Of a stretch of 64,000 nt of DNA, positions 1,908-57,095 are shown one piece after another. Under the pieces are notes generated by a model. The model saw nothing but the letters and a program-made list of their open reading frames with translations, had not been told where the DNA came from and did no database searches. How positions within the stretch are numbered: position 1 is the stretch's first letter; the number at the start of each line of letters is the position of its first letter. Position numbers and translations under genes: made by a program. Origin of the DNA: Dictyostelium discoideum (lineage: Eukaryota); the NCBI GenBank assembly GCA_000004695.1, contig CM000150.2:4320001-4384000 (forward strand), in the 5' to 3' direction.

Positions 1908-3986
1908 TTATTTTTGAATTAAAAATAATTCATCTAATTCAGATTTTGTAACAGTAGCAGGTGAAGAAGTCATTAATTCTTTACCACCAGAAGTTTTTGG
2001 AAAAGCAATAACATCACGAATTGAATTTGAATTTACTAATAGTGAACATAAACGATCAAAACCTAAAGCAATACCACCATGTGGTGGACAACCCATTGAA
2101 AGTGCAGTTAAAAGATGATTGAAACGTTGGACCATGTGTGGTTCCAATTTTAATACTTTTTCTAAAACACGTAATTGTACATCAGAGTTATGAATACGAA
2201 TTGAGCCACCACCCAATTCAACACCATTTATAACGATATCATAATGTTGGCCTCTAATCTTTGAATAATCAGATGGAGTTGATAATGGATTTAACAATAG
2301 ATCAATATCCTCTGGATGAGGAGCTGTGAATGGATGATGGGTTGATAATAGTGCTGATTGTTCATTCATGTAATCTGATGGAGTGAATAATGGGAAATCT
2401 ACAACCCACAAGAAATTGAATTGTTGTGGATCTAATTTTAATAAATTCAACTCTTTTAATAGATTTGCACAATAAATTCTAGTTTTACCAAGTGTTGATT
2501 CAACTTGGAATCTTGGACCAACACTAATTAATAAAACATCACCTTCTTTTAAATTCATTCTTTCAGTGATTAAAGTCTTTTCTTGTTCCGATATACTCTT
2601 TGAAATTAAAGATTTCCATTCATTATTTGATTTAATTTGTACAGTGATTATTGAATTTGATTCTGTAGTGATTTGATCAAGATGTTTGGATTTTAAAGTT
2701 GGTAAAACTTGATCTAATTTTATGCATTTAATGACAGGTTTAGATTCTTTGAAATTGTTTGATGCTTGAGATAATGCATTTTTAAATAGATTAATATTAG
2801 TTTCATCCTTATTGAAACAGTCTGTAATATCGACGAGTTTCATGTCATAACGAGTGTCAGGCTTATCAATACCATAGGTTGATAGAACTTGCTCATAGGT
2901 GTAGAATGGGAACTCATAGTCAATGTTGAAACCAGCCTCTTTCCAAAGTGTTTTAACCAATCCTTCAATGATACGATAAATCATTTGAGTATTTACAAAT
3001 GAAAGTTCCATATCGATTTGAGTGAATTCAGGTTGTCTATCTGAACGTAAATCTTCATCACGATAACAACGTGCCAATTGGAAATATCTGTCAATACCAC
3101 CTACCATAAGTAACTGTTTATATTGTTGGGGTGACTGTGGCAAGCTGTAGAATTGGCCTTGGTGTCTGGTTGGCACCAAATACTCTCTTGCACCCTCTGG
3201 TGTTGGTCTAAAGAGTGTTGGTGTTTCAACTTCAATGAATTGTTGATTGATTAAATAGTTTCTTGCTGCCATTGCTACCTTTGATCTTAATCTGATATTA
3301 CTTTGAACTTTGTCTCTTCTCAAATCAACATAACGATACTTTAATCTTAATTCCTCAGATACCGCAGTTGAATCATGTTCCACTGTAAATGGTAAATCCA
3401 CACAATTATTCAACAATTGTAATTGGTCAACTGAAATTTCAATTTCACCAGTTGACATATTCTTATTTACCATACGTTCTGGTCTTGCTATAACTTTACC
3501 TTTAATTGAAACAATTGATTCTAATTTAAAAAGTTTAATATTCTCTTCAATACTATTACGCTCATTTATATCAATATTTGGAACACTTGATTTTAATATA
3601 CATTGTTGTTTTAAATCAACATAACATTGAACTTTACCATGTCCATCTCTAATCACTAAAAATACGTTATCTCCTAAATTTCTTAATGAATTAATCCAAC
3701 CATAAATTATAACTTCTTTACCAATATCTTTACTTGTAATTTCACCACATGAATGACTTCTTTCAATAATATTTAAAATTTTATTATTTATATTTTCATT
3801 TTTATTATTATTTATGGTATTTGTAAAATTTCTTTTATTAAATTGATTAATTTGTTGATTTTTTATTATCGATGTGGTTGATGAAGTTGTGATATTTAAT
3901 AATGATAAACAATTTTTGTTTTTAATTATTGGTTTATTTAAAACATTTAAAAATATTTTAGAATCTTTTAATATTACTCGATTCAT
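1908..3986 (-). CDS. maspS: Aspartyl-tRNA synthetase, mitochondrial-type (bacterial-like class IIb), single exon, 692 aa
   Basis: Continuous ORF with ATG at 3986. Class II aaRS motifs are present: FRPTPEGAREYLVP, GGIDRYFQLARCYRDEDLRSDRQPEFTQIDMELSF, GGGSIRIH, GLAxGxDRL. An N-terminal OB-fold follows a basic Asn-rich presequence consistent with mitochondrial targeting. Confidence 0.9.
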   Translation of the reverse strand: MNRVILKDSKIFLNVLNKPIIKNKNCLSLLNITTSSTTSIIKNQQINQFNKRNFTNTINNNKNENINNKILNIIERSHSCGEITSKDIGKEVIIYGWINSLRNLGDNVFLVIRDGHGKVQCYVDLKQQCILKSSVPNIDINERNSIEENIKLFKLESIVSIKGKVIARPERMVNKNMSTGEIEISVDQLQLLNNCVDLPFTVEHDSTAVSEELRLKYRYVDLRRDKVQSNIRLRSKVAMAARNYLINQQFIEVETPTLFRPTPEGAREYLVPTRHQGQFYSLPQSPQQYKQLLMVGGIDRYFQLARCYRDEDLRSDRQPEFTQIDMELSFVNTQMIYRIIEGLVKTLWKEAGFNIDYEFPFYTYEQVLSTYGIDKPDTRYDMKLVDITDCFNKDETNINLFKNALSQASNNFKESKPVIKCIKLDQVLPTLKSKHLDQITTESNSIITVQIKSNNEWKSLISKSISEQEKTLITERMNLKEGDVLLISVGPRFQVESTLGKTRIYCANLLKELNLLKLDPQQFNFLWVVDFPLFTPSDYMNEQSALLSTHHPFTAPHPEDIDLLLNPLSTPSDYSKIRGQHYDIVINGVELGGGSIRIHNSDVQLRVLEKVLKLEPHMVQRFNHLLTALSMGCPPHGGIALGFDRLCSLLVNSNSIRDVIAFPKTSGGKELMTSSPATVTKSELDELFLIQK

Positions 3987-19031: not shown

Positions 19032-19529
19032 CATAGTTGAAAGTAAATATCTAACATTTAGTTTATTATATATCTAATTAATTAATCATTAAAAAATATA
19101 AATATACATTCATAATTGGCCCATACTACTTTATTACCATTTTCATTTTCTTATAAACAACTGCCTAAATTATGATTTATTTGGGTTAAAAAATAAATTA
19201 AAAAAAAAAAAAAAAAAAACATTTTTATACACTGATATATAAATACAAACATTTCCATCCTCTTGAAGTATAAGTGGTTATCATATGTCCTGGTTATTGT
19301 AATAGTGAAATATTTAAAAAAATAAAACAAAATTTATTATTCTCATACAAATTCAATTATTTTAGTGGTAATTATTATTTTTGTCTTTGATTTATAGAAT
19401 TGTTGTGATTAGTCAATAATTTCTAATAAATTTTTTTTTTTATTTTTTATATACAATTAACTAATAAACTTAACAAGATTTTAATTTACAAAAAAAAAAA
19501 AAAAAAAAAAACCATTATTTTCCCAATTG

Positions 19530-20174
19530 ATGATCGGTAGTCCACAATCGTTGCCATTGGGATTGGGAGTTGGTGGATCAATGTTGTCCTTAATACTTTG
19601 CAATATGCAACAACCTACATATACAACTTATGACACCATTTGGGATGGTCCATTGGATTATAGTGTAAAGAAACCAATTTTAAAAAGTGTTGATAAAAGT
19701 GGTAAAAGTGTAATAGAGTTTGAAGAATTCAGTAAATCGGTTATACCAATTACAGTTGCCAATTATTCAACGTTACATAAAATGGCATTCGTTTCATTTT
19801 GTGTATTCAATGGAATTTCACTATCACCCGCTTTCGGATTACTCCCAGTATCTACAGTTTTGGGGGTCGCAGCTTTAAGTGTATTCGTTACTGGTGGTAG
19901 TGCTTTTGCTGCATTAAAGATGAAACCTGATAGTTTAACCAAATATAAACCAATACTCTATGGTAGCTTGTTTGGTCTTTTCGGATTGGGTTTGGTTTCA
20001 ATTGGTACTTCAATAATGATGGGTGAGAATACTTTCACCCATTTCGCTCAAGAGTTTGATCTCTATTTTGGTCTTGCTTTATTCACTGGTTTAACTGCTT
20101 TAGATACAATGCTGTCAAAACTTTTCAAGAGGGTAAACCAGATAACATTAGAGTTTCAATTGATCTATTTTTAG
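19530..20174 (+). CDS. Small multi-pass transmembrane protein, about 214 aa, family unknown
   Basis: ORF with a local GC rise and coding codon usage. About 4 predicted helices (FVSFCVFNGISLSPAFGLLPVSTVLGVAALSVFVTGG; ILYGSLFGLFGLGLVSIGTSIMM; YFGLALFTGLTALDTML). The true ATG is at 19530 (the track start is TTG). It may lack upstream exons. Confidence 0.45.
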   Translation: MIGSPQSLPLGLGVGGSMLSLILCNMQQPTYTTYDTIWDGPLDYSVKKPILKSVDKSGKSVIEFEEFSKSVIPITVANYSTLHKMAFVSFCVFNGISLSPAFGLLPVSTVLGVAALSVFVTGGSAFAALKMKPDSLTKYKPILYGSLFGLFGLGLVSIGTSIMMGENTFTHFAQEFDLYFGLALFTGLTALDTMLSKLFKRVNQITLEFQLIYF

Positions 20175-20227
20175 ATATTTTAAATATTTTTGTTAGACTT
20201 TTAAGAGCTAGATAGCAATAAGTAACC

Positions 20228-20267
<40 letters not shown>

Positions 20268-20830
20268 CTGTAGATAAAAAAAAAAAAAAAAAAAAAGAAA
20301 TAAAAAATATGGTATTAAAATTTGTAAATAAATAAAGTTGTAATTAAATTTAATCAAATAACAAATTTTATGGAAGAAGATATTTTCCAATTTTTTAAAA
20401 AACAAACAAAAAAAAAAAAAAAAAAAAATAAAAATTATTATGGATGCCAAAAATTGTTGGTTTATAAAATATTTTAAAAATTTTTTATCTTGGTTTAATT
20501 TAAATAATGTTTTGAATTGGTTTTATTAAAAAAAAAATTATTTTTTATTTTCAAAAGTTACATATAATTTTTTTTTTTTTGTTTTAAAATTAAAATGATT
20601 ATTTTAAAAAGTTTAAAGAAATTATCATGTGATTATTTTAAAATTAAATCAAAATAAAAGATATTTATTTTTTAAAAATATCTTTTTCGTCAAAAAAAAA
20701 AAAACCGTCGTTTGTGTAAAAAATAGAAAAAGGACATTATTTTTTAAAAAAAAAAAAAAAAAAAAAAAAGCATTTAATACATTTCGATAAAATTCAAAAT
20801 CAGAAAAAAAAGCTACCTTTTTAACAAAAA

Positions 20831-22379
20831 ATGACAGAAAAATATAAGGTAAACTTTTTTTATATTTTATTTTTATTTTATATTTTAAATTATAATTTCA
20901 ATGTTGTAATTTCAATTTTTCCAACATCATTTTCTCAAATTAATTCAACAAATGGGTTTTTAATATCAGAAGGCAGAAGTTTAATTTCAATTACACATGG
21001 AGACTTGAACGGTGATGGTAATGATGATTTGATATATGCTAAACATTCAGAAGGACTATATGTATTTTATGGGCCATTAGCAAGTAATTTTGATTTTCAA
21101 ACAGACATATCAAAAATCAACGGTTCAAATGGTTTTATTTTTTTAAATACTACTGTTCTAATGTATCGAATAGCTGTTGGTGATATAAATAATGATGGAT
21201 TTGACGATATTGCTTTTTTTTTAAATATTATGCCAGGAAAACTTTGTGTTATCTATGGTACTGATCAAATTATATCACCTTCTACTTTTTCCACAGTGAA
21301 TGGTAATAATGGTTTCTATATTTCTCACGTTTCGTCCTCTAATATTGCATTTGGGCTTGTAAGATCAATCATTGATTTCAATGGTGACTCAATTAAAGAT
21401 TTATTTGTAGGTACATATTTTTTTTATTTTTTTATTTTGTTTTAAAAGTATTGTTGTTAATACAACACATATTTTTTTTTTTTTTTTTTTTTAGGTCTCT
21501 GCAAGTATAGGAACTTATGTAAGTACAGGAACACCAATTTCATATATGATATTTGGTATAAACGGTGGTAAATTTCAAGTTAATTCACAATTTGAATTTG
21601 ACCCTTCAACATTAAATGGGAGTAATGGTTTTTTAATTAATAATTTCAATTCATATGCGGCTTATCCTTATGATATGAATAATGATGGGATTGGTGATAT
21701 AATTATAAATAGGGGACATATAGCAATCGATATTATTTATGGTAGCAGAGGTCCTTTTACCTCACCATATATCCCAGTTTATGATGGTGTCAAAGGTACC
21801 AGTTTCAGCTTTTTAGGTTGCTCAACAAATTATAATGCTCTTCCAAATGCTTTTGGAGATTTTAATAATGATGGACTAAATGATTTTGGTGTAATTTATT
21901 CTTTATTATTTTTTGATTATTCTTATTCTTTATTATCCTTTATTGTTATTATACTAATTTTTACATTTTATTAAATAATTTTAGATTCTTACAAAACATA
22001 CTTCGGGTGACTATATAGCTTTTTTGGTTTGGGGTAAAACAGAATATCCACCAACAACAACATTAAGTATAAATCTAAATCCATCGGATGGTTTGGTTAT
22101 AGCAGTTATTGGCAACACCTATAACTGGGCTTTTTCTCCTAGGTTAGGGGATATAAATAATGATGGATTTGCAGATTTTTTAATCAATGGTAACACTGAC
22201 CTCCCATTCACCATTTTGTATGGTAATAATAAAAATTATGCTTCAAATCCAATTTATTTAAAAGATCAAGTTGGTGATTGTTCAAAAATGTCAATTAATG
22301 GCTATGCTGAGGCTATTGATATTGGTGATTATAACTCTGATGGTATTGATGATATTGTAAGTAATATTATATTAAATCA

Positions 22380-22459
<80 letters not shown>

Positions 22460-24152
22460 CATTATTTTTAACTTTTAAATAACTCTATTCTATCAGACAG
22501 CAGCTATATTAGCAACAGGTTCATATTTAGATATTTATACAATATATGGTCAAACTTCGATTGGTTCAATTTCAATAATTAGTAAATTATTTCAACCAAA
22601 TCCAATGTCAAACTCAATTTATAAATTATTTGAAAATAATATTAATTCAGAAGTTGGACAATGCGCAATTAGAATTGTTACATTAACAATTGAAAATCCA
22701 GCAAATGAAGATCAATTTATTATTAATCCTAGTTTCGATAGTTCAATATATTCAATAACATTTAATAATAATACAAGAGTTAGAATTGAATTAATATTAT
22801 TTGGTGATGAGAGTAAATCAATTGCAAATGATGTTTTACCAAAAATAACAGTTTCATTGTCACCTCAGCTATTTAATAGAACTATATTAATGAAATATGG
22901 TAATCAAGTACAATCAATTAAATTCATTGGTCAACCAAATGCAAATTGTGATACAAAATGTTTAAATGGAGGTACTTGTAATCCACTCACTGGTTGCCAA
23001 TGTATAAATGATCATTATGGTGATTATTGTGAATTAAAAGATTGTACAGTTCCACAATGTTTAAATGGTGGTTCATGTAATACAACAGTTGGTGAATGTT
23101 CATGCACTCAAGGTTATGAAGGTACGGATTGCAGTGGTATTAGTTGTTCAGCTTCATGTTCAAATGGTGGTTCATGTAATACTACAGTTGGTGAATGTTC
23201 ATGTCCTCAAGGTTATGAAGGTGTAGATTGCAGTGGTATTAGTTGTTCAATTTCATGTTTAAATGGTGGTTTATGTAATACTACAGTTGGTGAATGTTCA
23301 TGTATTAATGGCTTTTATGGTGATGATTGTGATACAAAGGATTGTACAGTTCCACAATGTTTAAATGGTGGTTCATGTAATACTACAGTTGGTGAATGTT
23401 CATGCACTCAAGGTTATGAAGGTATAGATTGTAGTGGTATTAGTTGTTCAGTTTCATGTTTAAATGGTGGTTTATGTAATACTACAGTTGGTCAATGTCA
23501 ATGTATAAATGACTTTTATGGTGATAATTGTGGTACAAAGGATTGTGCAGTTCCACAATGTTCAAATGGTGGTTCATGTAATACTACAGTTGGTGAATGT
23601 TCATGCACTCAAGGTTATGAAGGTATAGATTGTAGTGGTATTAGTTGTTCAGTTTCATGTTTAAATGGTGGTTCATGTAATACAACAGTTGGTCAATGTC
23701 AATGTATAAATGACTTTTATGGTGATAATTGTGGTACAAAGGATTGTACAGTTCCACAATGTTTAAATGGTGGTTCATGTAATACTACAGTTGGTGAATG
23801 TTCATGCACTCAAGGTTATGAAGGTATAGATTGTAGTGGTATTAGTTGTTCGGTTTCATGTTTAAATGGTGGTTTATGTAATACTACAGTTGGTCAATGT
23901 CAATGTGTTGAAGATTATGATGGCGATGGTTGTGGTTCTGATAATAAAAAGAAAACAAATATTGGTGTTATCATTGGCCCAATTCTAGGTGGTCTTGCAC
24001 TAATTGCAATTATTGTTGTTGCAATTGTTTTAATTAAAAAGAAGAAGAATGGAAATTCAAAAAAAAATACAAATAACATTGAATTAAGACCTCAAGGTTC
24101 CACTGTTGATATTCAAATGGGTGGTAGAATTAAAAATCTTGATAAATTTTAA
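20831..24152 (+). CDS. Type I membrane protein with an FG-GAP (integrin-alpha-like) beta-propeller followed by about 10 tenascin-type EGF repeats, a TM helix and a short tail, about 1000 aa; exons 20831..21406, 21495..21890, 21985..22356, 22497..24152
   Basis: The four track ORFs join in phase 0 via GTAGGT/GTAATT/GTAAGT donors and ttag/tttag/tatcag acceptors. There is an N-terminal signal peptide. Repeated Ca-binding FG-GAP motifs are present: GDLNGDGNDDLIY, GDINNDGFDDIAF, DMNNDGIGDII, GDFNNDGLNDFGV, GDINNDGFADFLI, GDYNSDGIDDI. The EGF modules repeat CLNGGSCNTTVGECSCTQGYEGxDCSGISC. TM is IGVIIGPILGGLALIAIIVVAIVLI. The (TTA)n tract 22381..22459 is intronic. Confidence 0.75.
22381..22459. repeat. 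(TTA)n microsatellite in intron 3 of the FG-GAP/EGF gene
   Basis: Seen directly. It generates the spurious poly-Leu tail of ORF 22024..22482. Confidence 0.9.
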
Positions 24153-24455
24153 ATTTAAAAAGAGATTATTTTAAATCAATTCTGTTGTATTATTATTGTT
24201 TTTTACTTCCAAAAAAAAAAAAAAAAAAAATTTTTGATCAAAATGATTATAATAAAAACCGCAGGGGTTATTTTTAAAAATAATTTGAAAAAATTCAGTG
24301 ATTTCATTTTATTATTATTTTTTTTTTTTTCTTATTTTTTTTTTTGTTTTTTTTTTTTTTTTTTTTTAATAATTTTGTAAAATAAAAATAACTCTTATAA
24401 ATTACATGTTGTATTATTATTTTAAAATTTGTAAATAAATAAATAAATAAATAAA

Positions 24456-24493
<38 letters not shown>

Positions 24494-24497
24494 ATAC

Positions 24498-24548
<51 letters not shown>

Positions 24549-25086: not shown

Positions 25087-26771
25087 ATGAAAATGGAAAT
25101 TTGGAAAGTAATATTTTCAATTTGGTTTTTGTTATTCCAAAATTTTGTTTTAAGTGCCAAAAACGATGATAAGTAAATATGAAAATCTTTTTGTTTGATT
25201 AAAATTGGAGTTTGTTTTTAATAAATATTTATTAATAATTTTTATTTAGTAAATTAAAAGTTATAAGAGGAAGAAATGTAATTTATAATGGAAACGTTAT
25301 ACCATTATCAATTTTAATAAGGTATTTATTGAAAAAATGAAAAAAAAAAAAGTTTTAATTGTTAATTGTTTATTTATTTAAAATTTTTAGAAATGGTAAA
25401 ACAATAGGTATTAAAGATTATTCATTTAATCCTAAAAAATTGAATGAAAATTATGAAATTTTATATGATGATCGTGAATGTAATAATAATGAAGATTTTA
25501 TTATAATGGGTGGTTTAGTTGATAGTCATGTTCATGTTAATGAACCAGGTAGAACTGAGTGGGAGGGATTTGAAAGTGCAACAAGTGCAGCAGCAGCTGG
25601 TGGTGTTACTACAATTGTTGATATGCCATTAAACAGTTCACCAGTAACTACAAGCTTTAAAAATTTACTTGATAAAATTGAATCTATGAAAGGTAAATTA
25701 AGAGTAGATGTTGGATTATTGGGTGGTATAGTTCCAGGAAATTCAAAAGAAATAAAAAAAATGGTTTTACAAGGTGGGGTATTAGGATTTAAATCATTTT
25801 TATTACCATCTGGAATTGATGAATTTCCTCCAGTAAATGAGAATGATATTCAAGAAGCAATGAATGAAATGAAATTATTAAAATGTCAATATAATAATTC
25901 AGATGTAATTATGATGTTTCATGCAGAAGTTGAAGAACCAATTAAAGAAGCAACTGTTAGATTAAAAAATGAAAATGCCGATCCAAAATTATATAAAACC
26001 TATTTAGATAGTAGACCTAAAATATCAGAAAATCAAGCAATTTCTAAATTAATTGATATAACTAGACAAAACCAAATCGTATCAACACATATCGTTCATT
26101 TATCATCAAGTGAATCAATTGAACAAATTAGAGAAGCAATGGATCAAGGTGTACCAATTTCCGCAGAAACTACATATAATTATTTACATTTAACTTCTGA
26201 ATCAGTACCTTATGGAAACACATTATTTAAAAGTGCACCACCAGTTAGAGAACATGAAAATAAAGAATTGTTATGGAATGCTATTATTAATGGTACAATA
26301 AAATTAATTGTTTCAGATCATTCACCATGTACAATTAATTTGAAACAATTGAAAGAAGATAATCAATCAATTGGTGATTTCTTAAAAGCATGGGGTGGTA
26401 TTTCATCATTGGAATTAGGTTTACCAATAATTTGGACAGAATGTAAAAATAGAGGTATTCCAATTACACAACTCTCTGAATGGTTATCAAATGGACCATC
26501 TAAATTAGTTGGTTTAAATGATAGAAAAGGTTCAATTGAAATAGGTAGAGATGCTGATTTTGTAATTTTCAATCCAAATGAATCATTCATTGTAAATGAA
26601 AAGAAATTATTTTTAAAAAATAAATTCTCTGCATATAATGGTGAAAAATTATTTGGAGTAGTTTATGAAACAATTTTAAGAGGTAATTCAATTTTTAAAA
26701 AAGGTGATAATAAAATTAAAAAAATTATTGGTCAACGTTTAATTAAATCAAATTTAATAAATAAAAAATAA
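25087..26771 (+). CDS. Allantoinase (cyclic amidohydrolase superfamily); exons 25087..25172, 25250..25321, 25391..26771
   Basis: Main exon has [56 protein letters not shown] and GIS motifs. Two short 5' exons are predicted (GTAAAT phase 2; GTATTT phase 2). They add a hydrophobic N-terminus, [24 protein letters not shown]. These 5' exons are less certain than the catalytic exon. Confidence 0.8.
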
Positions 26772-36678: not shown

Positions 36679-38223
36679 ATGATTGATGATTCTTTAGCAA
36701 ATGTTTGGCAATTAATACCAACACGTAGATCACAAATGATCATAAACTATCAACAAGAGGTTATCCATTCTCCAACACCAATTGCCTCAATATCAAATAA
36801 AAATGATACAAATCAACAATTACAACCACAACTACAACCACAACAACCACAACAATTATCACCAAATGTTGATCAACATATGCAATTGGAACAACAATTA
36901 CATTACCAATTACAACAACAAGCTTTACAACAACAACAAGCTTTGCAACAACAACAACAACAACAACAACAAATACAACCATCATCAATTATTTCAACAA
37001 CACAAGAAACAACCGGATTTTTCCCAGTTGAAAGACATGGTCATACAACTTGTTTATATAAAAATAAAGTGATTTTATTTGGTGGTACACCTGATGGTTC
37101 ACATGGTTTAAGTGATTTATATTTTCTTTATTTAGGTAATTATTTTTATAATTATTTAAAAAAATAATTTATAAAATTTAAAATTATTAATTTATTTTTT
37201 ATTTTTTATTGATTTTTTGAAGATACATATTCTTGGGTTGAAATTAAAACAAAAGGAAATGCACCAAATGGTAGATATAGACATAGTGCAATTATAATAG
37301 AAGATAAAATGTATATATTCGGAGGATATAGGTCAAAATGTTTAAATGATTTACATGTATTAGATTTAGAGACATTTACATGGTCAGAACCAATTTGTAT
37401 TGGAGAAGCACCATCGGCACGTTCATCACATTCAGTTTGTTGTGTTGGAAAGATGATGATATTATTTGGAGGTAGTGGAGCACGTTACTCTAATGAATTG
37501 TTTTCATTGGACACTGTTACGATGCGTTGGACTAAACATGATGTATTGGGAACACCTCCCTCAGAGAGATGGTGTCATACAATGTGCAGTTTCGGTAAGA
37601 AGGTGGTTACATTTGGTGGCTCAAACGATAAGAGAAAAGATAATAAAGTTTATATATTGGATACCGATACGATGGAATGGTCGCAACCTCCCACCTCTGG
37701 AAACTGTCCAATACCCAGACAGTTGCATACTGCAGTGGCAATCGGCGAGAGTATGATCGTTTTCGGAGGCTGGGGTAAACATCAGGAATTGAATGACCTC
37801 TACATACTCAATACTCGTACTATGAAATGGGTTTGTCCAAAGATTGACAATGTCATACCTTGTTGTCGTCAACTTCATTCCGCTTGGGTATACAATGGTA
37901 AAATGTATACTTTGGGTGGCTATTTTAAAAACAAAAGAATGATCGATGTTTATTGTTTCACACCCGAACAAACCGTTTCAACTCTACGTGAATTTTGTAT
38001 TGAAACCATTGTCGAAGATGTTTTCAAATATGTACCAATGTTTAATCATTTCCCAGAGGAAATACTATATCAAATTTTCTCAAGATTATCTCAAGCTGGA
38101 AAATTAATACCACTTCAATTGGATTATTTAATTAGAAAATCTTATTTAGCCGACCAAGTTGCTTTAGTTTTATCTACCAATAAGAATGGTGGTACAATTG
38201 AAGAAACTCCAAATCCAATTTAA
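36679..38223 (+). CDS. Kelch-repeat (6-blade beta-propeller) protein with Gln-rich N-terminus and C-terminal helical region; exons 36679..37135, 37223..38223
   Basis: Donor TTAG|GTAATT (phase 1); acceptor ttttgaag|AT. Kelch blades: HGHTTCLYKNKVILFGG, RYRHSAIIIEDKMYIFGG, RSSHSVCCVGKMMILFGG, RWCHTMCSFGKKVVTFGG, RQLHTAVAIGESMIVFGG, RQLHSAWVYNGKMYTLGG. The segment 37460..37980 has GC far above the rest of the gene. Confidence 0.75.
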
Positions 38224-41925: not shown

Positions 41926-44077
41926 AGTTTATATTTTTACATACTTTTTTAAAAGATTATATATTTATTCAATTTTTTTATTTTTATTTTTATTTTTTTT
42001 TTTAGTGAAATGGATCCAGTATTAGATTCAACATCAGAAAATAATACAACTAGAAAGACTAGAGGTTCAAGAAATTCTAAAAAAGAACCAGAAGAACTTT
42101 TACTAACACCAGAACAAGCAAAAGAATTATCAAATAAAAGTAAAAAATGGATATATGTCCCAATTATTGAAGCAGAAGCCAAAAAAGAAGAAGTTCTTCC
42201 TGCAAAGAGAGATAGAAAACAAGTATTTAACGAAAATATATTTTCATCATCAAGAAAATCAACAACAAAAGGTGGTGAAAAGAAAAATGATACAGCATCA
42301 ACAACCAATACACCAATTATAACAGCACAACAAAATACTACACCATTATCACCAACACAAACAACAACAACAACAACAACACCAACAACAACCACTGCAC
42401 AACAAAATACACCAGCACAAACAGAATCAAAACCACCAACAACCATTTCAATAAATATTAAAGGATCAAAATCACCAAAAACAACTGGTGGTAAACAACA
42501 GAAACCAACTCCACCTTCACCAGTGGTTATATCACAACCAGTAGTCCCATCTACACCAGTAGTTGCTACTACTAAAAAAACAAATAGTAGATCTAAAAGG
42601 TCAACTGCAAACAACAACAGTGAAACCACACAAACACCAGAAGTTGTTATTTCAGCACCAACTACAACTACGGCTGCCATTACAACACCAATAAATATAA
42701 CACCATCTTCTGATTCTGCAACTATTCAACAATTACAACAATCAATTTCAATGTTGGAGGATAAAATAAGATTAATTAGCTCAAATAATAAAGTAGCAAC
42801 CGAAATTTTAAATAATACAATAACAACAACTACAACAACAGCAGCAACATCAGCAATAAAAGATGAAGAAATTATCGAAAATACAGAATTACAAACAACT
42901 TTTACAAAAAGTTCAACTTTAGCACCACCTTCATCAGAAAGAAAATATTCAAATTTATATAGCGATGACGAAGACGATACTGAAATGGTAGATGTCTCTG
43001 TATCAATACCAATACCAATACCAATACCAACACCAACTCAAACCACAACTAAAAAAACAACTTTATCAAAAAAAAGAAAATCGAATACATCAACTATAAT
43101 ACCCACAACAACAATACAACAAGAACAAGGACAAGAACAAGGGCAACAACAACCACCACAACAACAACAACCACCACAACAACAACAACCACCACAACAA
43201 CAACAACCACCACAACAACAACCACCACAACAATCAACTTCACCATCAAAAACACAACAAGAAAATACATCATCAACCACTACTACAACAACCACTACTA
43301 CAACAACAACAAATACAGAAGATACAACAACTGTTATAGATAAAAAGCCAAAAAAGAAACCAAGACATTCAGCTCCATTGATACCACAAATAAAACCAAG
43401 ACTTCCATTGAACGGAGGTTCAAGTGAAAGAGCACAAAGATCATCAAGAGGTAGAATGGGTAAGGCAATGAGAGATGTTGTTTTAACACCAGTATTTAAG
43501 AGATGTTTAGATCTCTTGGAAGAACTTTTTGAACATCAACATTCTCCACCTTTTCTCGTTGCTGTGGATCCATACGCATTGGGAATCTTGGATTACTTTG
43601 ACGTCATCAAGCATCCAATGGATCTTGGAACTATTAAAGCCTCACTTATAGGTGGAGGTTACGATACCATTGATAAATTTGCCGAGGATTGTCGTTTGGT
43701 ATTTTCAAATGCTAAAACCTATAATCCTTCAACAAACCCTGTACATATTATGGCACAAAGCCTCGAAGATGTTTTTGAAAAAGGATTCCCAAAGGTTTTA
43801 ATTGAACCACCTTCACCACCACCAAAGAATGTCGATCAAGAAAAAATTGAAAAACTTTCAAATGATTTAAAAAATGTTACAAAAGAATTGGAAAAATTTA
43901 AAAAAGATGATAGTAATAGTATTAATAATAATAATAACAATAATAATAATTATAATAATAATAATAATAATAACAATAATAATAGTAGCAGTAGTAGTAG
44001 TAGATCTTCAAGTAGAAAGAGTCATAGTAGTGGTAGCAGTAGTAGTCATAGAAGTGGATCAAGTCGTTCAAGTCGTG

Positions 44078-44117
<40 letters not shown>

Positions 44118-44976
44118 CAGTAGTAGTAGTAGTAGCAGCAGCAGCAGTAGTAATAATAAAAAATATCCAAAGGTTACAACTGAAGAGAAAACAAAATTAG
44201 GTGCTGAAATTACTCAATTACCTGTAGATTTATTACCATCGATTCTCCAAATCATTCATAATACCAATTCATTACCTGAGCAAAAACCAGGTAGTGAAGT
44301 TGTTATTGATTTAATGAAATTTGATGACGATATATTAAGAAGATTGAGTAAATTTGTTGAACAATATAAAAATGGCGAAATACCACAACATGCCTTACCA
44401 TTGTCTGCTCCATCCTCTACTCACAGTAGCCATAGTAGTAGTCATGATTCAAGTAGTAACATTAGAGAAATTGAAAAACTTCAAAAACAACTCGATCGTT
44501 TGGGTAAAGGTCAACAAAATAGTAGTAGTAGTAGTAGCAGTAGTTCACACAGTAAAAGAATTTCAAAACCAATTTCAAAAGCTCGTGGTCGTAAAGTAAT
44601 TTCAACTAGCTCTTCAAATTTAAATAATAGTAGTAATAATATTAATAATAATAATAATAATATTAATAATTATAATAATAATAATAATTATAATAACAAT
44701 AATAATAATAATTTAAATAATAACAATAACAATAATATTAATAGCAACCTAAATAATAATTTAAATAATAATAATAACAAAGATGATATTGTAATTGATG
44801 GTTTCAAAAAAGAAAATTTCTCGTCTATCCCTGAAAAGGATGTAGAGACTGATATAAGTGAGTCTAGTGATAGTGAAAGTGATAGTGAAAGTGGCTCATC
44901 CGATTCAAGTAGTTCATATTCTGATTCTGATTTTAGTGATAGTGATAATGATAGACGTAGAAATTATAATAATAGT

Positions 44977-45013
<37 letters not shown>

Positions 45014-45935
45014 GTAGTAATAATTTCAATAATCAAAATAATAGTTATAATAATAGTAACAATAATAATAATAATAATAGTAGTAATAATAATAATAATA
45101 ATAACAATAATAATAGCAATAATAATAATAGTAATAACAATAATAATAATGTTAATAATAATAATAATAATCATAATAATAATAATCATAATAATAATAT
45201 TAATAATAATAATAATAATATAAATAATAATACAACTCAACCATCGCCATCACAACAATCTACATCACTAACAAATGAACCAATCAAACCACCAACCATC
45301 TTACAAACAGTTAAAAAACCTGCACTTCCGGTGACTGGTTCTGTTGCATCATGGAGTTTTGATCCAACAAATAATAAAGAATCTTCCTCATCATCATCTA
45401 CATCATCCACATCATCTACATCGAATACAACTTTAACACCAATCATTCAACAATCATCACTTACACATGCATCATCACCAATTTCTTCTTCAACATTTGT
45501 TTCCTTTTCATCTTCATCCTCAACCCCACCAACTAATAACTTATCTCCACCATCACCAGGTCTCCCAAATTCACCATCTATTAATTCACCATCCTCTCCA
45601 AGTGCAAATAATAATAATACCGATTCAGCATGGAACCATTTTAAAGCAAAGAATATTACATTAAAACAAAAGGAGAAAGAACGTGTTTTACAAGAAGAGG
45701 TATTAAGAAAAGAAAGAGAAGAAAAAGAAGAAGAACTTAAAAAAGAAGAAGAAAAGAAAAGAATTGAGATGGAAGAAATTAAAAGATTGGCAAAGGAGAA
45801 AGAAGAAAGAGAAGCTGAAGAAACAAGAAAACAAATTGAGTCTGAAAGAGCTGCTGCTAGAGAAGCAAGGGAAAAAGAAAAAGTATATTTTTATTTATAT
45901 AAATATACATATATATTTTTGTGAAAATCCACTAA

Positions 45936-49736: not shown

Positions 49737-54066
<4,330 letters not shown>

Positions 54067-55991: not shown

Positions 55992-57095
55992 TTAAGGAAT
56001 CCAAATTGATAAACATTTATCATAAAATGAACAGCAACCAATGAATTGTTTATCAAAATTATTTTTATTAAAAGACCAATCAACACCATATGCAATAGAT
56101 TTATGAGGACCATTATAGGATTGTTCAATTTGTAATGTTGAGAAATCATTTATATTTTCAGGATCAGTTGATAAGATATGAAAACCACCACCCATACAAG
56201 CGGTAACTAATTTATTTTTTTGAAAAGGATGCCATTTAATACGCCAAATTCCACCACCTAAAGAATCTGTTGTTATTATTGGTTGTTTTAAAGATTTTAA
56301 ATCCCAAATTCTTAAACATTCATCATAACTACCAACTGCAATTAAATTTTCAATAGTTGGATGACAATGAATTGAAGTTACACCCATATCACATCTTTTG
56401 GTAAATTTTGGAGTTGGTGGTATACCAATGTCGTCGTCGTTATGATTCAACAATTGATTTAAATCCCAAATTTTAAATTTACAATCATCACCACCTGAAA
56501 ATACTATTGATTCATCATGATAATTGAATGCACAAATCCAAGCTTCATAATCATGTGCTTTCCATCTTTTCTCTTCTGTTACTTTTGAATAATCTTTTGT
56601 CACTTTAAATAAACCAATATTCCCATCACTAAAACTACAAATTAATTTATCACCACTTTTATTCCAATCTAATGATAATGATAATATATCATTTGATAAT
56701 GAAATTTCTGTTGAACTTTTTAATTCTAATTTCTTTTCAACTTCATCATATTGATAAATATTTAATTCACCTTTTGACATTACAACACCAAGTATTCTAT
56801 CTTTATTATTATTCCATTTCATATCTAAAATACCACTATTAAAATTAATATTTTGAATTTCTTTAAATAATTTATTATTATTATTATTTTCATTATTATT
56901 ATCATTTTCTTTTTGTTGTTGTTCTTCTTCAATTTCAAATAAATATAATTTCCCTTTTCTTCTTTCTTTATATTCTGTATCACCTTTTTCAATTTCATAT
57001 GTACCACATACAAATATATTATTATTAAATGGATAAAATTCAACACTATCTGATGTATAATCTAAATATTTAGTATTTTTTATTATTTCTGTCAT
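55992..57095 (-). CDS. WD40-repeat protein, DPH7/WDR85-like (diphthamide biosynthesis) - tentative orthology; single exon, 367 aa
   Basis: ATG at 57095. N-terminus LDYTSDSVEFYPFNNNIFVCGTYEIEKGDTEYKERRKGKLYLFEI resembles the DPH7 N-terminal signature. WD repeats (FSDGNIGLFKV, FSGGDDCKFKIWDL, AVGSYDECLRIWDL). An acidic/Asn insert is present. Confidence 0.55.
   Translation of the reverse strand: MTEIIKNTKYLDYTSDSVEFYPFNNNIFVCGTYEIEKGDTEYKERRKGKLYLFEIEEEQQQKENDNNNENNNNNKLFKEIQNINFNSGILDMKWNNNKDRILGVVMSKGELNIYQYDEVEKKLELKSSTEISLSNDILSLSLDWNKSGDKLICSFSDGNIGLFKVTKDYSKVTEEKRWKAHDYEAWICAFNYHDESIVFSGGDDCKFKIWDLNQLLNHNDDDIGIPPTPKFTKRCDMGVTSIHCHPTIENLIAVGSYDECLRIWDLKSLKQPIITTDSLGGGIWRIKWHPFQKNKLVTACMGGGFHILSTDPENINDFSTLQIEQSYNGPHKSIAYGVDWSFNKNNFDKQFIGCCSFYDKCLSIWIP

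Follow-up and report, generated by a model that had tools for sequence, protein, structure and literature searches.

Does an amoeba that is said to have no integrins carry an integrin-like receptor of its own, or a surface protein of a different kind? This question is raised by the gene DDB_G0271042 of Dictyostelium discoideum AX4, which lies on the forward strand of a 64,000-nucleotide stretch (GenBank assembly GCA_000004695.1, contig CM000150.2, positions 4,320,001 to 4,384,000) that we call the window, and whose product had been described in a first-pass annotation as integrin-alpha-like, the organism being rightly taken there for an amoebozoan. A 2022 review states that 'Dictyostelium lacks integrins' and counts SadA, the Sib proteins and the TM9 proteins among its adhesion receptors, Kang et al. 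(bioRxiv 10.1101/2020.04.29.069435) report that integrin alpha (ITGA) is absent from Dictyostelium species, and the literature credits dictyostelids with no integrin beta (ITGB), only Sib proteins. DDB_G0271042 is a real gene, annotated since the publication of the genome under the names 'hypothetical protein' or 'EGF-like domain-containing protein', and has apparently never been studied. Our analysis indicates that its product is not an integrin alpha orthologue or a member of that family. Judging from its architecture, we consider it probable that growing cells use the protein as a calcium-dependent receptor at their surface, for recognition or adhesion, and that its ligand diversifies.

The gene model was built independently and coincides with the deposited one. 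The spliced product of 999 residues is 100% identical to the DDB_G0271042 protein over 100% of its length, and the coordinates and three phase-0 introns of the first-pass annotation are thereby borne out (Table 1). The GC content is 26-32% in the exons versus 7-14% in the introns and 21% in the whole window, and the boundaries of exon 1 were recovered identically in three other copies of the D. discoideum clade. An (ATT)n microsatellite with some 30 units lies in intron 3 (22380-22470), whose 140 nt correspond to 176, 136 and 208 nt in three other copies. The protein begins with a hydrophobic segment (residues 12-30, Kyte-Doolittle 1.85) and holds 15 predicted N-glycosylation sequons, nine of which are the N-T-T of EGF modules 2-10. 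Pfam assigned FG-GAP and FG-GAP_3 to the first half of the protein, and EGF_TEN, EGF_2 and hEGF to the second. These matches exceed the curated cut-offs (FG-GAP, PF01839 / PF13517 superfamily, 49.9 bits against 22.1; FG-GAP_3, 64.1 against 26.9; EGF_TEN, 133 against 65, E 1.4e-38), and the earlier proposal that an FG-GAP propeller, an EGF array, a transmembrane (TM) helix and a short tail are combined in one type I membrane protein is upheld.

The opposite view, that FG-GAP exons and EGF exon are transcribed separately and that the joined model is an artefact, can point to two deposited models from other strains that are plainly wrong, one merging two tandem copies (P0001) and one merging a dehydrogenase with a fragment of a family member (P0010). 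This view is close to refuted. Intron 3 falls between the calcium loop of blade 7 and the next strand, and exon 4 finishes the propeller; all three introns are in phase 0, have canonical sites and are very poor in GC; and at least eight relatives are predicted with the identical architecture. In addition, head and anchor share single open reading frames (ORFs) in two other species. In D. purpureum, one uninterrupted ORF encodes blades 6-7, the neck, four EGFs, the TM helix and the tail, and the orthologous gene of Tieghemostelium lacteum has no introns, which agrees with the first-pass claim that FG-GAP and EGF parts form one coding unit.

The head has seven blades. Each blade holds one match to D-x-[ND]-x-D-[GS]-x-x-D, the seven being spaced 59-70 residues apart, against a mean of 0.006 matches in residue-shuffled sequences, and each is preceded by a strand of the 'NGxNGF' type. 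The earlier count of at least six calcium loops is thus raised to seven, their spread over three exons (three, two and two) being as described. An AlphaFold2 model of residues 36-645, for which eight members of the dictyostelid family and nine single-propeller proteins of bacteria served as input, gave a propeller of about 28 strands with pLDDT mostly 70-92. In Foldseek searches of the Protein Data Bank (PDB), the top matches of this propeller were ITFG2 (1.6e-8) and CRTAC1 (8.8e-8); a Streptomyces UmbA4 complex was also matched, as were integrins alpha5 and alphaIIb. When a sequence profile was compared with solved structures, the best matches were the calcium-binding blades of integrins alphaV (E 6e-13), alpha5 and alpha4, but these spanned two or three blades and were out of register, and a single-sequence search of PDB sequences with head plus neck returned no match at E up to 1. 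As modelled, the head is an FG-GAP-type seven-bladed propeller and not specifically an integrin head. With one canonical hairpin per blade, the fold probably needs up to seven calcium ions, which these loops would bind.

The neck would form a family-specific beta-sandwich under the head. It showed pLDDT of only 30-45 in the first AlphaFold2 run and folded only once divergent T. lacteum paralogues had joined the alignment. Pfam returned no match in the neck and none in the tail, and the neck carries one cysteine that is invariant as far as the T. lacteum protein P0124. By eye, the neck resembles the domain that follows cyanobacterial propellers ('..ATVxITN..E.L...YQQVLRSITY..'); this identification was supported neither by BLASTP nor by hhalign, which gave a probability of 0.3 and an E-value of 0.2 in the same register as the comparison by eye.

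The EGF rod points to a recent history of recombination. Its modules fit the pattern C-x(2-5)-C-x(3-6)-C-x(4-9)-C-x-C-x(6-10)-C and follow each other without linkers, each about 31-34 residues long; EGF_2 scored 99 bits with nine matched stretches, and the profile of calcium-binding EGFs, EGF_CA, was absent from the Pfam results up to an E-value of 1. The modules had been described as about ten and near-identical. The cysteine count confirms ten, but they are of two types, arranged as B A A B A B A B A B, with type A reading C-T-V-P-Q-C..T-Q-G-Y-E-G-I-D-C-S-G-I-S and type B reading C-S-V-S-C..I-N-D-F-Y-G-D-N-C-G-T-K-D. DNA identity is 94-100% among the type A modules 2, 5, 7 and 9 (100% over 102 bp between 5 and 9) and 90-98% among the type B modules 4, 6 and 8, but only 68-77% between A and B and 58-70% between module 1 and each of the others. 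The module pairs 5-6 and 7-8 are 98% identical. Since A and B alternate and the period is 201 bp, the near-perfect repeat unit is a two-EGF cassette and not a single EGF; at a period of 99 bp, Tandem Repeats Finder gave 74% matches only. The tandem array first drawn at 23040..23900 is indeed near-perfect, with its limits and unit now those given in Table 1. Recent unequal crossing-over, as had been suggested, is supported by the identity of modules 5 and 9 and by EGF numbers that range from 4 to 10 among close relatives: four in D. purpureum, 5-7 in D. citrinum, nine in D. dimigraforme and 6-10 in full-length copies of the D. discoideum clade, DDB_G0271042 having the highest number in the family. 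Stalk length would shift through such exchanges within the 201-bp repeat. Because the number of EGFs is so variable, and because a Thr/Ser-rich stretch replaces the group-4 EGFs in T. lacteum P0124, the rod is probably a spacer, which, with nine of its ten modules carrying a sequon, would hold the head well off the membrane.

The membrane anchor is more uniform. The TM helix contains G-V-I-I-G-P-I-L-G-G, whose core G-V-I-x-G-P-I is kept in D. purpureum and T. lacteum, and its GxxxG motifs suggest helix-helix association. The cytoplasmic tail starts with a polybasic KKKK and continues as ..ELRPQGST..GGxIxxLDKF to the C-terminus; a motif scan of the tail found neither GFFKR nor NPxY. The helix had been correctly foreseen, while the tail proved to have 38 residues rather than 45. 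The AX4 paralogue has an identical tail, of which Q..S...I..GG.I...DKF persists as far as T. lacteum. The conservation of helix and tail implies a fixed intracellular partner; the tail presumably docks such a cytosolic protein, and the receptor would signal through it.

Variation between the copies of the family is unevenly spread over the protein. Coding sequences were rebuilt for seven copies, and propeller sites were classed by the AlphaFold2 strands and the blade topology, with the calcium hairpin set as the 1-2 loop by homology with integrins. In a meander of four strands, this should place loops 2-3 and 4-1 on the other face of the propeller, away from the calcium loops. Integrins use this 4-1/2-3 loop face of the propeller for ligand. 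Across seven D. discoideum-clade copies, 73% of sites in the 4-1 and 2-3 loops vary and 42% show at least three residues, versus 10% and 0% in the calcium loops and 3-4 linkers; in the neck the values are 13% and about 1%. The contrast between the two faces is highly significant (Fisher p = 1.5e-24).

Rates of non-synonymous (dN) and synonymous (dS) change were then estimated by the Nei-Gojobori method, from which one copy (L004/P0004) was left out because of a frameshift in exon 3. Between DDB_G0271042 and its AX4 paralogue, dN/dS was 1.3 on the variable face (dN 0.234, dS 0.177), 0.12 on the opposite face (0.005, 0.036) and 0.31 in the neck (0.020, 0.063). In the comparison with the L006 copy, the variable face reached 2.7 (dN 0.257, dS 0.096), with a non-synonymous excess at p = 0.016. 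Among the D. discoideum-clade copies, the variable face ranges from about 1 to 2.7 and the opposite face and neck from 0.07 to 0.31, and the density of non-synonymous differences on the variable face exceeds that on the opposite face by a factor of 55-62 (p about 1e-19 to 1e-21). A hypervariable propeller face in a protein otherwise under purifying selection is a pattern new in this analysis. Through this face, the head would bind an external ligand.

Could the gene simply be a redundant, decaying and barely expressed duplicate, its variation reflecting relaxed constraint and not function? Raw RNA sequencing (RNA-seq) counts near zero over most of development would fit, as would a dN/dS of 1.0 for the whole propeller against the AX4 paralogue and the existence of damaged family copies (the frameshift in L004; the fragment within the dehydrogenase model DDB_G0285753). 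However, the frame of 999 codons and all six splice sites are intact, change is concentrated on one face, and the opposite face, neck and tail are strongly conserved, so that decay is a decidedly unlikely explanation.

DDB_G0271042 is one of two recently duplicated D. discoideum genes, the other being DDB_G0285585. Besides the whole of DDB_G0271042 and its introns, the duplicated segment takes in the 3' exon of Bax1-I, the gene upstream, the DNA between the two genes and roughly 400 bp of flanking DNA on the 3' side; on the left, homology ends sharply at 19515 (tblastx), inside the Bax1-I gene. The last exon of this Bax inhibitor-like gene shows about 98% protein identity to the copy beside DDB_G0285585. 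The D. citrinum family member likewise has Bax1-I upstream, and the neighbours at the D. purpureum locus are unrelated. Copy number and arrangement vary between strains, one of which has a tandem second copy (L006 5442-5984). The merged model P0001 is 1452 residues long, and AX4 DDB_G0285753, like P0010, joins a short-chain dehydrogenase to the fragment of a family member. A further copy, from the D. discoideum strain assembly GCA_054883475.1 (L004 2300-3300, P0004), is 92% identical to the DDB_G0271042 protein; its exon 3 has a 1-nt frameshift, which the deposited model skips, dropping 20 residues of blade 5, and which marks either a pseudogene or an assembly error. At its own locus DDB_G0271042 is solitary, and the large window ORFs listed at the end of Table 1 are unrelated to the family.

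Relatives with the full architecture were found in D. discoideum strains, D. citrinum, D. dimigraforme and D. purpureum (43% identity), and a profile search added T. lacteum, a group 3 species. The T. lacteum protein P0124 aligns end to end, with seven calcium loops, the neck, a G-V-I-V-G-P-I TM core and a tail ending in GGKIETIDKF. Neither group 1-2 dictyostelids nor other Amoebozoa gave a match among the best 120 of either profile search; the family, found only in groups 3-4, appears to be restricted to dictyostelids. At least 12 more T. lacteum paralogues (P0224-P0268), annotated as 'tenascin X', have the head and neck followed by a cysteine-rich C-terminal region. No C-terminal hydrophobic segment was seen in their sequences, and they look like a secreted branch of the family.

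Beyond dictyostelids, the named matches are bacterial FG-GAP proteins from cyanobacteria, Bacteroidota and others, many more being metagenomic, with identities of about 27-33% and E-values of 1e-40 to 1e-92. Most of them sit at the level of single repeats and in shifting registers, whereas secreted flavobacterial proteins of about 666 residues align blade for blade over all seven blades with every calcium loop in register. It is possible, though doubtful, that the head, perhaps together with the neck, was horizontally acquired from bacteria by an ancestor of the group 3-4 dictyostelids, and that stalk, anchor and tail were added later. That the best named matches outside dictyostelids are bacterial agrees with such an origin, as do the seven-blade flavobacterial alignments, the signature 'NGxNGF ... 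GDxNxDGxDD' in each blade, as in the bacterial proteins, the lack of group 1-2 dictyostelids and other Amoebozoa among the best 120 matches, and an intron number rising from zero in T. lacteum to one in D. purpureum and three, at the same positions, in the D. discoideum clade. However, repeat-level similarity in shifting registers inflates E-values and leaves no clear donor, the database is mostly bacterial, and like repeats occur in eukaryotic-looking proteins (the MMETSP transcript P0211; P0066 and P0072, which combine FG-GAP, TM helix and kinase). In addition, the comparison of the neck with the cyanobacterial domain was insignificant, and the GC content of the exons bears no trace of a foreign composition relative to the window, as would be expected of an old event. 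A bacterial source concerns the origin of the head and is compatible with a receptor function. As a separate observation, three eukaryotic-looking sequences from metagenomes or read archives (P0066, P0072 and P0013) have the same type of FG-GAP repeat and a single TM helix, and two of them add a cytoplasmic protein kinase domain, recalling the kinase-bearing 'Type II ITGA' of Kang et al.

Expression data indicate when such a receptor might act. According to the supplements of PMC4403905, suspension cells give 21-33 raw reads of DDB_G0271042 at 0 h and 0-3 on starvation, and the gene appears in the 'suspension_DOWN' lists of that study. During development on filters it has 0-7 raw reads per sample, apart from one replicate with 21 at 18 h and 20 at 20 h. 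This low expression, with its peak in growing cells, suggests that the gene acts while the cells feed and not when they cohere during development, the counts being small.

Several observations weigh against the proposed receptor and its diversifying ligand. First, expression in axenic AX4 is very low for most of filter development, and the identifier is absent from the supplement files examined of a life-cycle proteome and of a bacteria-response RNA-seq study, both weak negatives as these files are perhaps incomplete. Second, no family member has an experimentally determined function, and the literature searched (by identifier, and for FG-GAP with Dictyostelium) contains no paper naming the gene and no main text naming either DDB_G0271042 or DDB_G0285585. 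Third, glycosylation, calcium binding and surface location of the protein are predictions, and the loop faces were assigned from AlphaFold2 secondary structure, blade topology and integrin precedent rather than from coordinates. Fourth, of the three pairs compared, only one reaches nominal significance for a dN/dS above 1 on the variable face. There dS is also high, to which patchy gene conversion or relaxed constraint could contribute and behind which old allelic lineages may also stand; formal positive selection on this face is not established. With these points taken into account, a calcium-dependent receptor of growing cells is still the reading we favour.

A bolder version is that the family constitutes a second polymorphic recognition-receptor system of Dictyostelium, based on FG-GAP propellers, whose ligand face diversifies between paralogues and strains under selection. 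We regard this as rather unlikely at present. Its targets could be self and non-self, mating partners to be discriminated, or the variable surfaces of prey or pathogenic bacteria. If it were true, an amoeba said to be without integrins would possess a propeller-based counterpart of immune-type or allorecognition receptors, with a stalk length tuned by gain and loss of EGF repeats. Since the list of Dictyostelium surface receptors is short (SadA, Sib proteins, TM9/Phg1 and Tgr proteins), the family would in any case add a calcium-propeller receptor to it, one that combines a hypervariable putative binding face, a recombining stalk that can be swapped with a mucin-like stretch, and a deeply conserved TM helix and tail. 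Propeller surface proteins of the FG-GAP type are already known as a class; it is the hypervariable face and the interchangeable stalk that are noteworthy.

Table 1. Positions of DDB_G0271042, its parts, the duplicated segment and other ORFs, counted from the first letter of the window
Feature	Position	Strand	Residues	Details
Segmental duplication	19516..24548	+		about 5 kb, common with the DDB_G0285585 locus, 90-94% identity; blastn, boundary by tblastx
Whole gene, start to stop codon	20831..24152	+	1-999	spliced translation equals deposited protein
Exon 1	20831..21406	+	1-192	signal peptide and blades 1-3
Intron 1	21407..21494	+		phase 0, GT..AG, 88 nt, 13.6% GC
Exon 2	21495..21890	+	193-324	blades 3-5
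Intron 2	21891..21984	+		phase 0, GT..AG, 94 nt, 11.7% GC
Exon 3	21985..22356	+	325-448	blades 5-7 as far as calcium loop 7
Intron 3	22357..22496	+		phase 0, GT..AG, 140 nt, 7.1% GC; splits blade 7
Exon 4	22497..24152	+	449-999 and stop	end of blade 7, neck, ten EGFs, TM helix, tail
Predicted signal peptide	20831..20935	+	1-35	hydrophobic N-terminus; cleavage site inferred without a dedicated predictor
Seven-bladed FG-GAP beta-propeller	20936..22556	+	36-468	spans introns 1-3
Calcium-loop motif 1	21002..21028	+	58-66	DLNGDGNDD; invariant in two alignments
Calcium-loop motif 2	21182..21208	+	118-126	DINNDGFDD
Calcium-loop motif 3	21374..21400	+	182-190	DFNGDSIKD
Calcium-loop motif 4	21672..21698	+	252-260	DMNNDGIGD
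Calcium-loop motif 5	21858..21884	+	314-322	DFNNDGLND
Calcium-loop motif 6	22150..22176	+	380-388	DINNDGFAD
Calcium-loop motif 7	22327..22353	+	439-447	DYNSDGIDD
Middle ('neck') domain	22557..22946	+	469-598	orphan eight-strand beta-sandwich as modelled; AlphaFold2
Ten six-cysteine EGF modules	22947..23945	+	599-931	tenascin/teneurin type; Pfam and cysteine pattern
DNA tandem repeat	23156..23906	+		201-bp (two-EGF) unit, 3.7 copies, 96% matches; Tandem Repeats Finder
TM helix	23961..24035	+	937-961	IGVIIGPILGGLALIAIIVVAIVLI; two consecutive GxxxG motifs; Kyte-Doolittle 3.04
Cytoplasmic tail	24036..24149	+	962-999	KKKKNGNSKKNTNNIELRPQGSTVDIQMGGRIKNLDKF; 38 residues
Bax1-I, last exon	19516..20174	+		Bax inhibitor-like
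Class II aminoacyl-tRNA synthetase ORF	1908..3986	-
Amidohydrolase ORF	25359..26771	+		immediate downstream neighbour of DDB_G0271042
Kelch-repeat protein ORF	37309..38223	+
Bromodomain/BET protein ORF	42010..45924	+
LRR-PP2C phosphatase ORF	50956..54066	+
WD40 protein ORF	55992..57095	-

Metazoan integrin alpha chains (alphaV, alpha5, alphaIIb) resemble the DDB_G0271042 protein in several respects. Both have an N-terminal, seven-bladed FG-GAP propeller with D-x-N-x-D-G-x-x-D hairpins, a beta-sandwich directly after the propeller, where integrins have their thigh domain, a type I topology with a short tail, and GxxxG in the TM helix. A genuine integrin alpha orthologue kept in Dictyostelium, forming a heterodimer with a beta-like partner such as Sib through propeller and GxxxG helix, would account for these likenesses, for the integrin blades that head the sequence matches to solved structures, and for the fact that the loose 'Type II ITGA' definition of Kang et al. 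formally applies. We nevertheless regard it as very improbable. The cation hairpins, limited in integrins to the last three or four blades, are present in all seven; neither the thigh and calf legs (Integrin_alpha2, Integrin_A_Ig) nor any other leg domain was found by Pfam at E up to 1, an EGF rod taking the place of the Ig-like legs where no thigh, calf or genu is detectable in the sequence; and the tail contains no membrane-proximal KxGFFKR. In addition, the out-of-register integrin matches cover two or three blades, ITFG2, CRTAC1 and bacterial propeller lectins match the fold equally well or better, the head matches bacterial FG-GAP proteins far better and has its nearest sequences outside dictyostelids there, the family occurs in group 3-4 dictyostelids only, and no integrin beta is on record for dictyostelids. 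A conserved beta-type partner is also unlikely because the face on which a beta subunit would dock is hypervariable between copies. Thus, of the integrin-alpha-like description the propeller fold has stood, while the leg domains, the GFFKR motif and the confinement of cation loops to the last blades have all failed. In its working the protein would nevertheless resemble a head of the integrin-alpha type set on a stalk.

The amoebozoan 'Type II ITGA' proteins come closer in architecture. That definition asks for three or more FG-GAP blades bearing cation motifs, for a signal peptide, a single TM helix or both, and for a non-canonical flanking domain, and the DDB_G0271042 protein has all of these; like paralogue 1 of Flabellula citata, whose head is followed C-terminally by an EGF-like domain (Kang et al., bioRxiv 10.1101/2020.04.29.069435), it carries EGFs beyond the propeller. 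It differs in its ten EGFs, orphan neck and family-specific tail, and none of the proteins of Kang et al. was among the best matches here; the likeness is one of architecture. Loose, architecture-based definitions of integrin alpha therefore admit this protein and strict ones exclude it, which bears on the history of integrins in Amoebozoa.

The bacterial FG-GAP proteins compared, namely cyanobacterial RTX-type giants and the 666-residue Bacteroidota proteins with one propeller and a T9SS sorting domain, share NGxNGF ... GDxNxDGxDD ... YVxFG in each blade, and those with a single propeller align blade for blade. However, they are secreted or bear bacterial export or anchor modules, have no EGF rod and no eukaryotic TM helix with tail, and show no detectable counterpart of the neck. 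CRTAC1 and ITFG2 were the top structural matches of the propeller, yet their sequence identity to the DDB_G0271042 protein is 11-12%. ITFG2 is cytosolic, and CRTAC1 is a secreted protein in which an FG-GAP-type propeller is joined to one calcium-binding EGF and a UnbV_ASPIC region; here the fold agrees with that of CRTAC1, but Pfam gave no UnbV_ASPIC match and the two sequences share 12% identity.

The rod is of the tenascin/teneurin type, made of contiguous six-cysteine modules of about 31-34 residues that match EGF_TEN and EGF_2 and follow one another without linkers. Tenascins are secreted, oligomeric matrix proteins, whereas the EGFs of DDB_G0271042 would form the stalk of a single-pass receptor. 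Within Dictyostelium, the substrate-adhesion receptor SadA has three tenascin-like EGF repeats (PMC2173991, PMC9197732). It differs from the DDB_G0271042 protein in having nine transmembrane segments and no propeller. Tgr proteins contain Ig-like (IPT/TIG) domains, folds unrelated to those described here, and Tgr genes are strongly induced in development, whereas DDB_G0271042 is expressed at a low level that falls on starvation. With the allorecognition receptors TgrB1 and TgrC1, whose binding region is highly variable between strains (PMC12142906), the likeness lies in behaviour only: both are single-pass surface proteins, in the present case as predicted, with a highly variable extracellular region, here the putative ligand face of the propeller.

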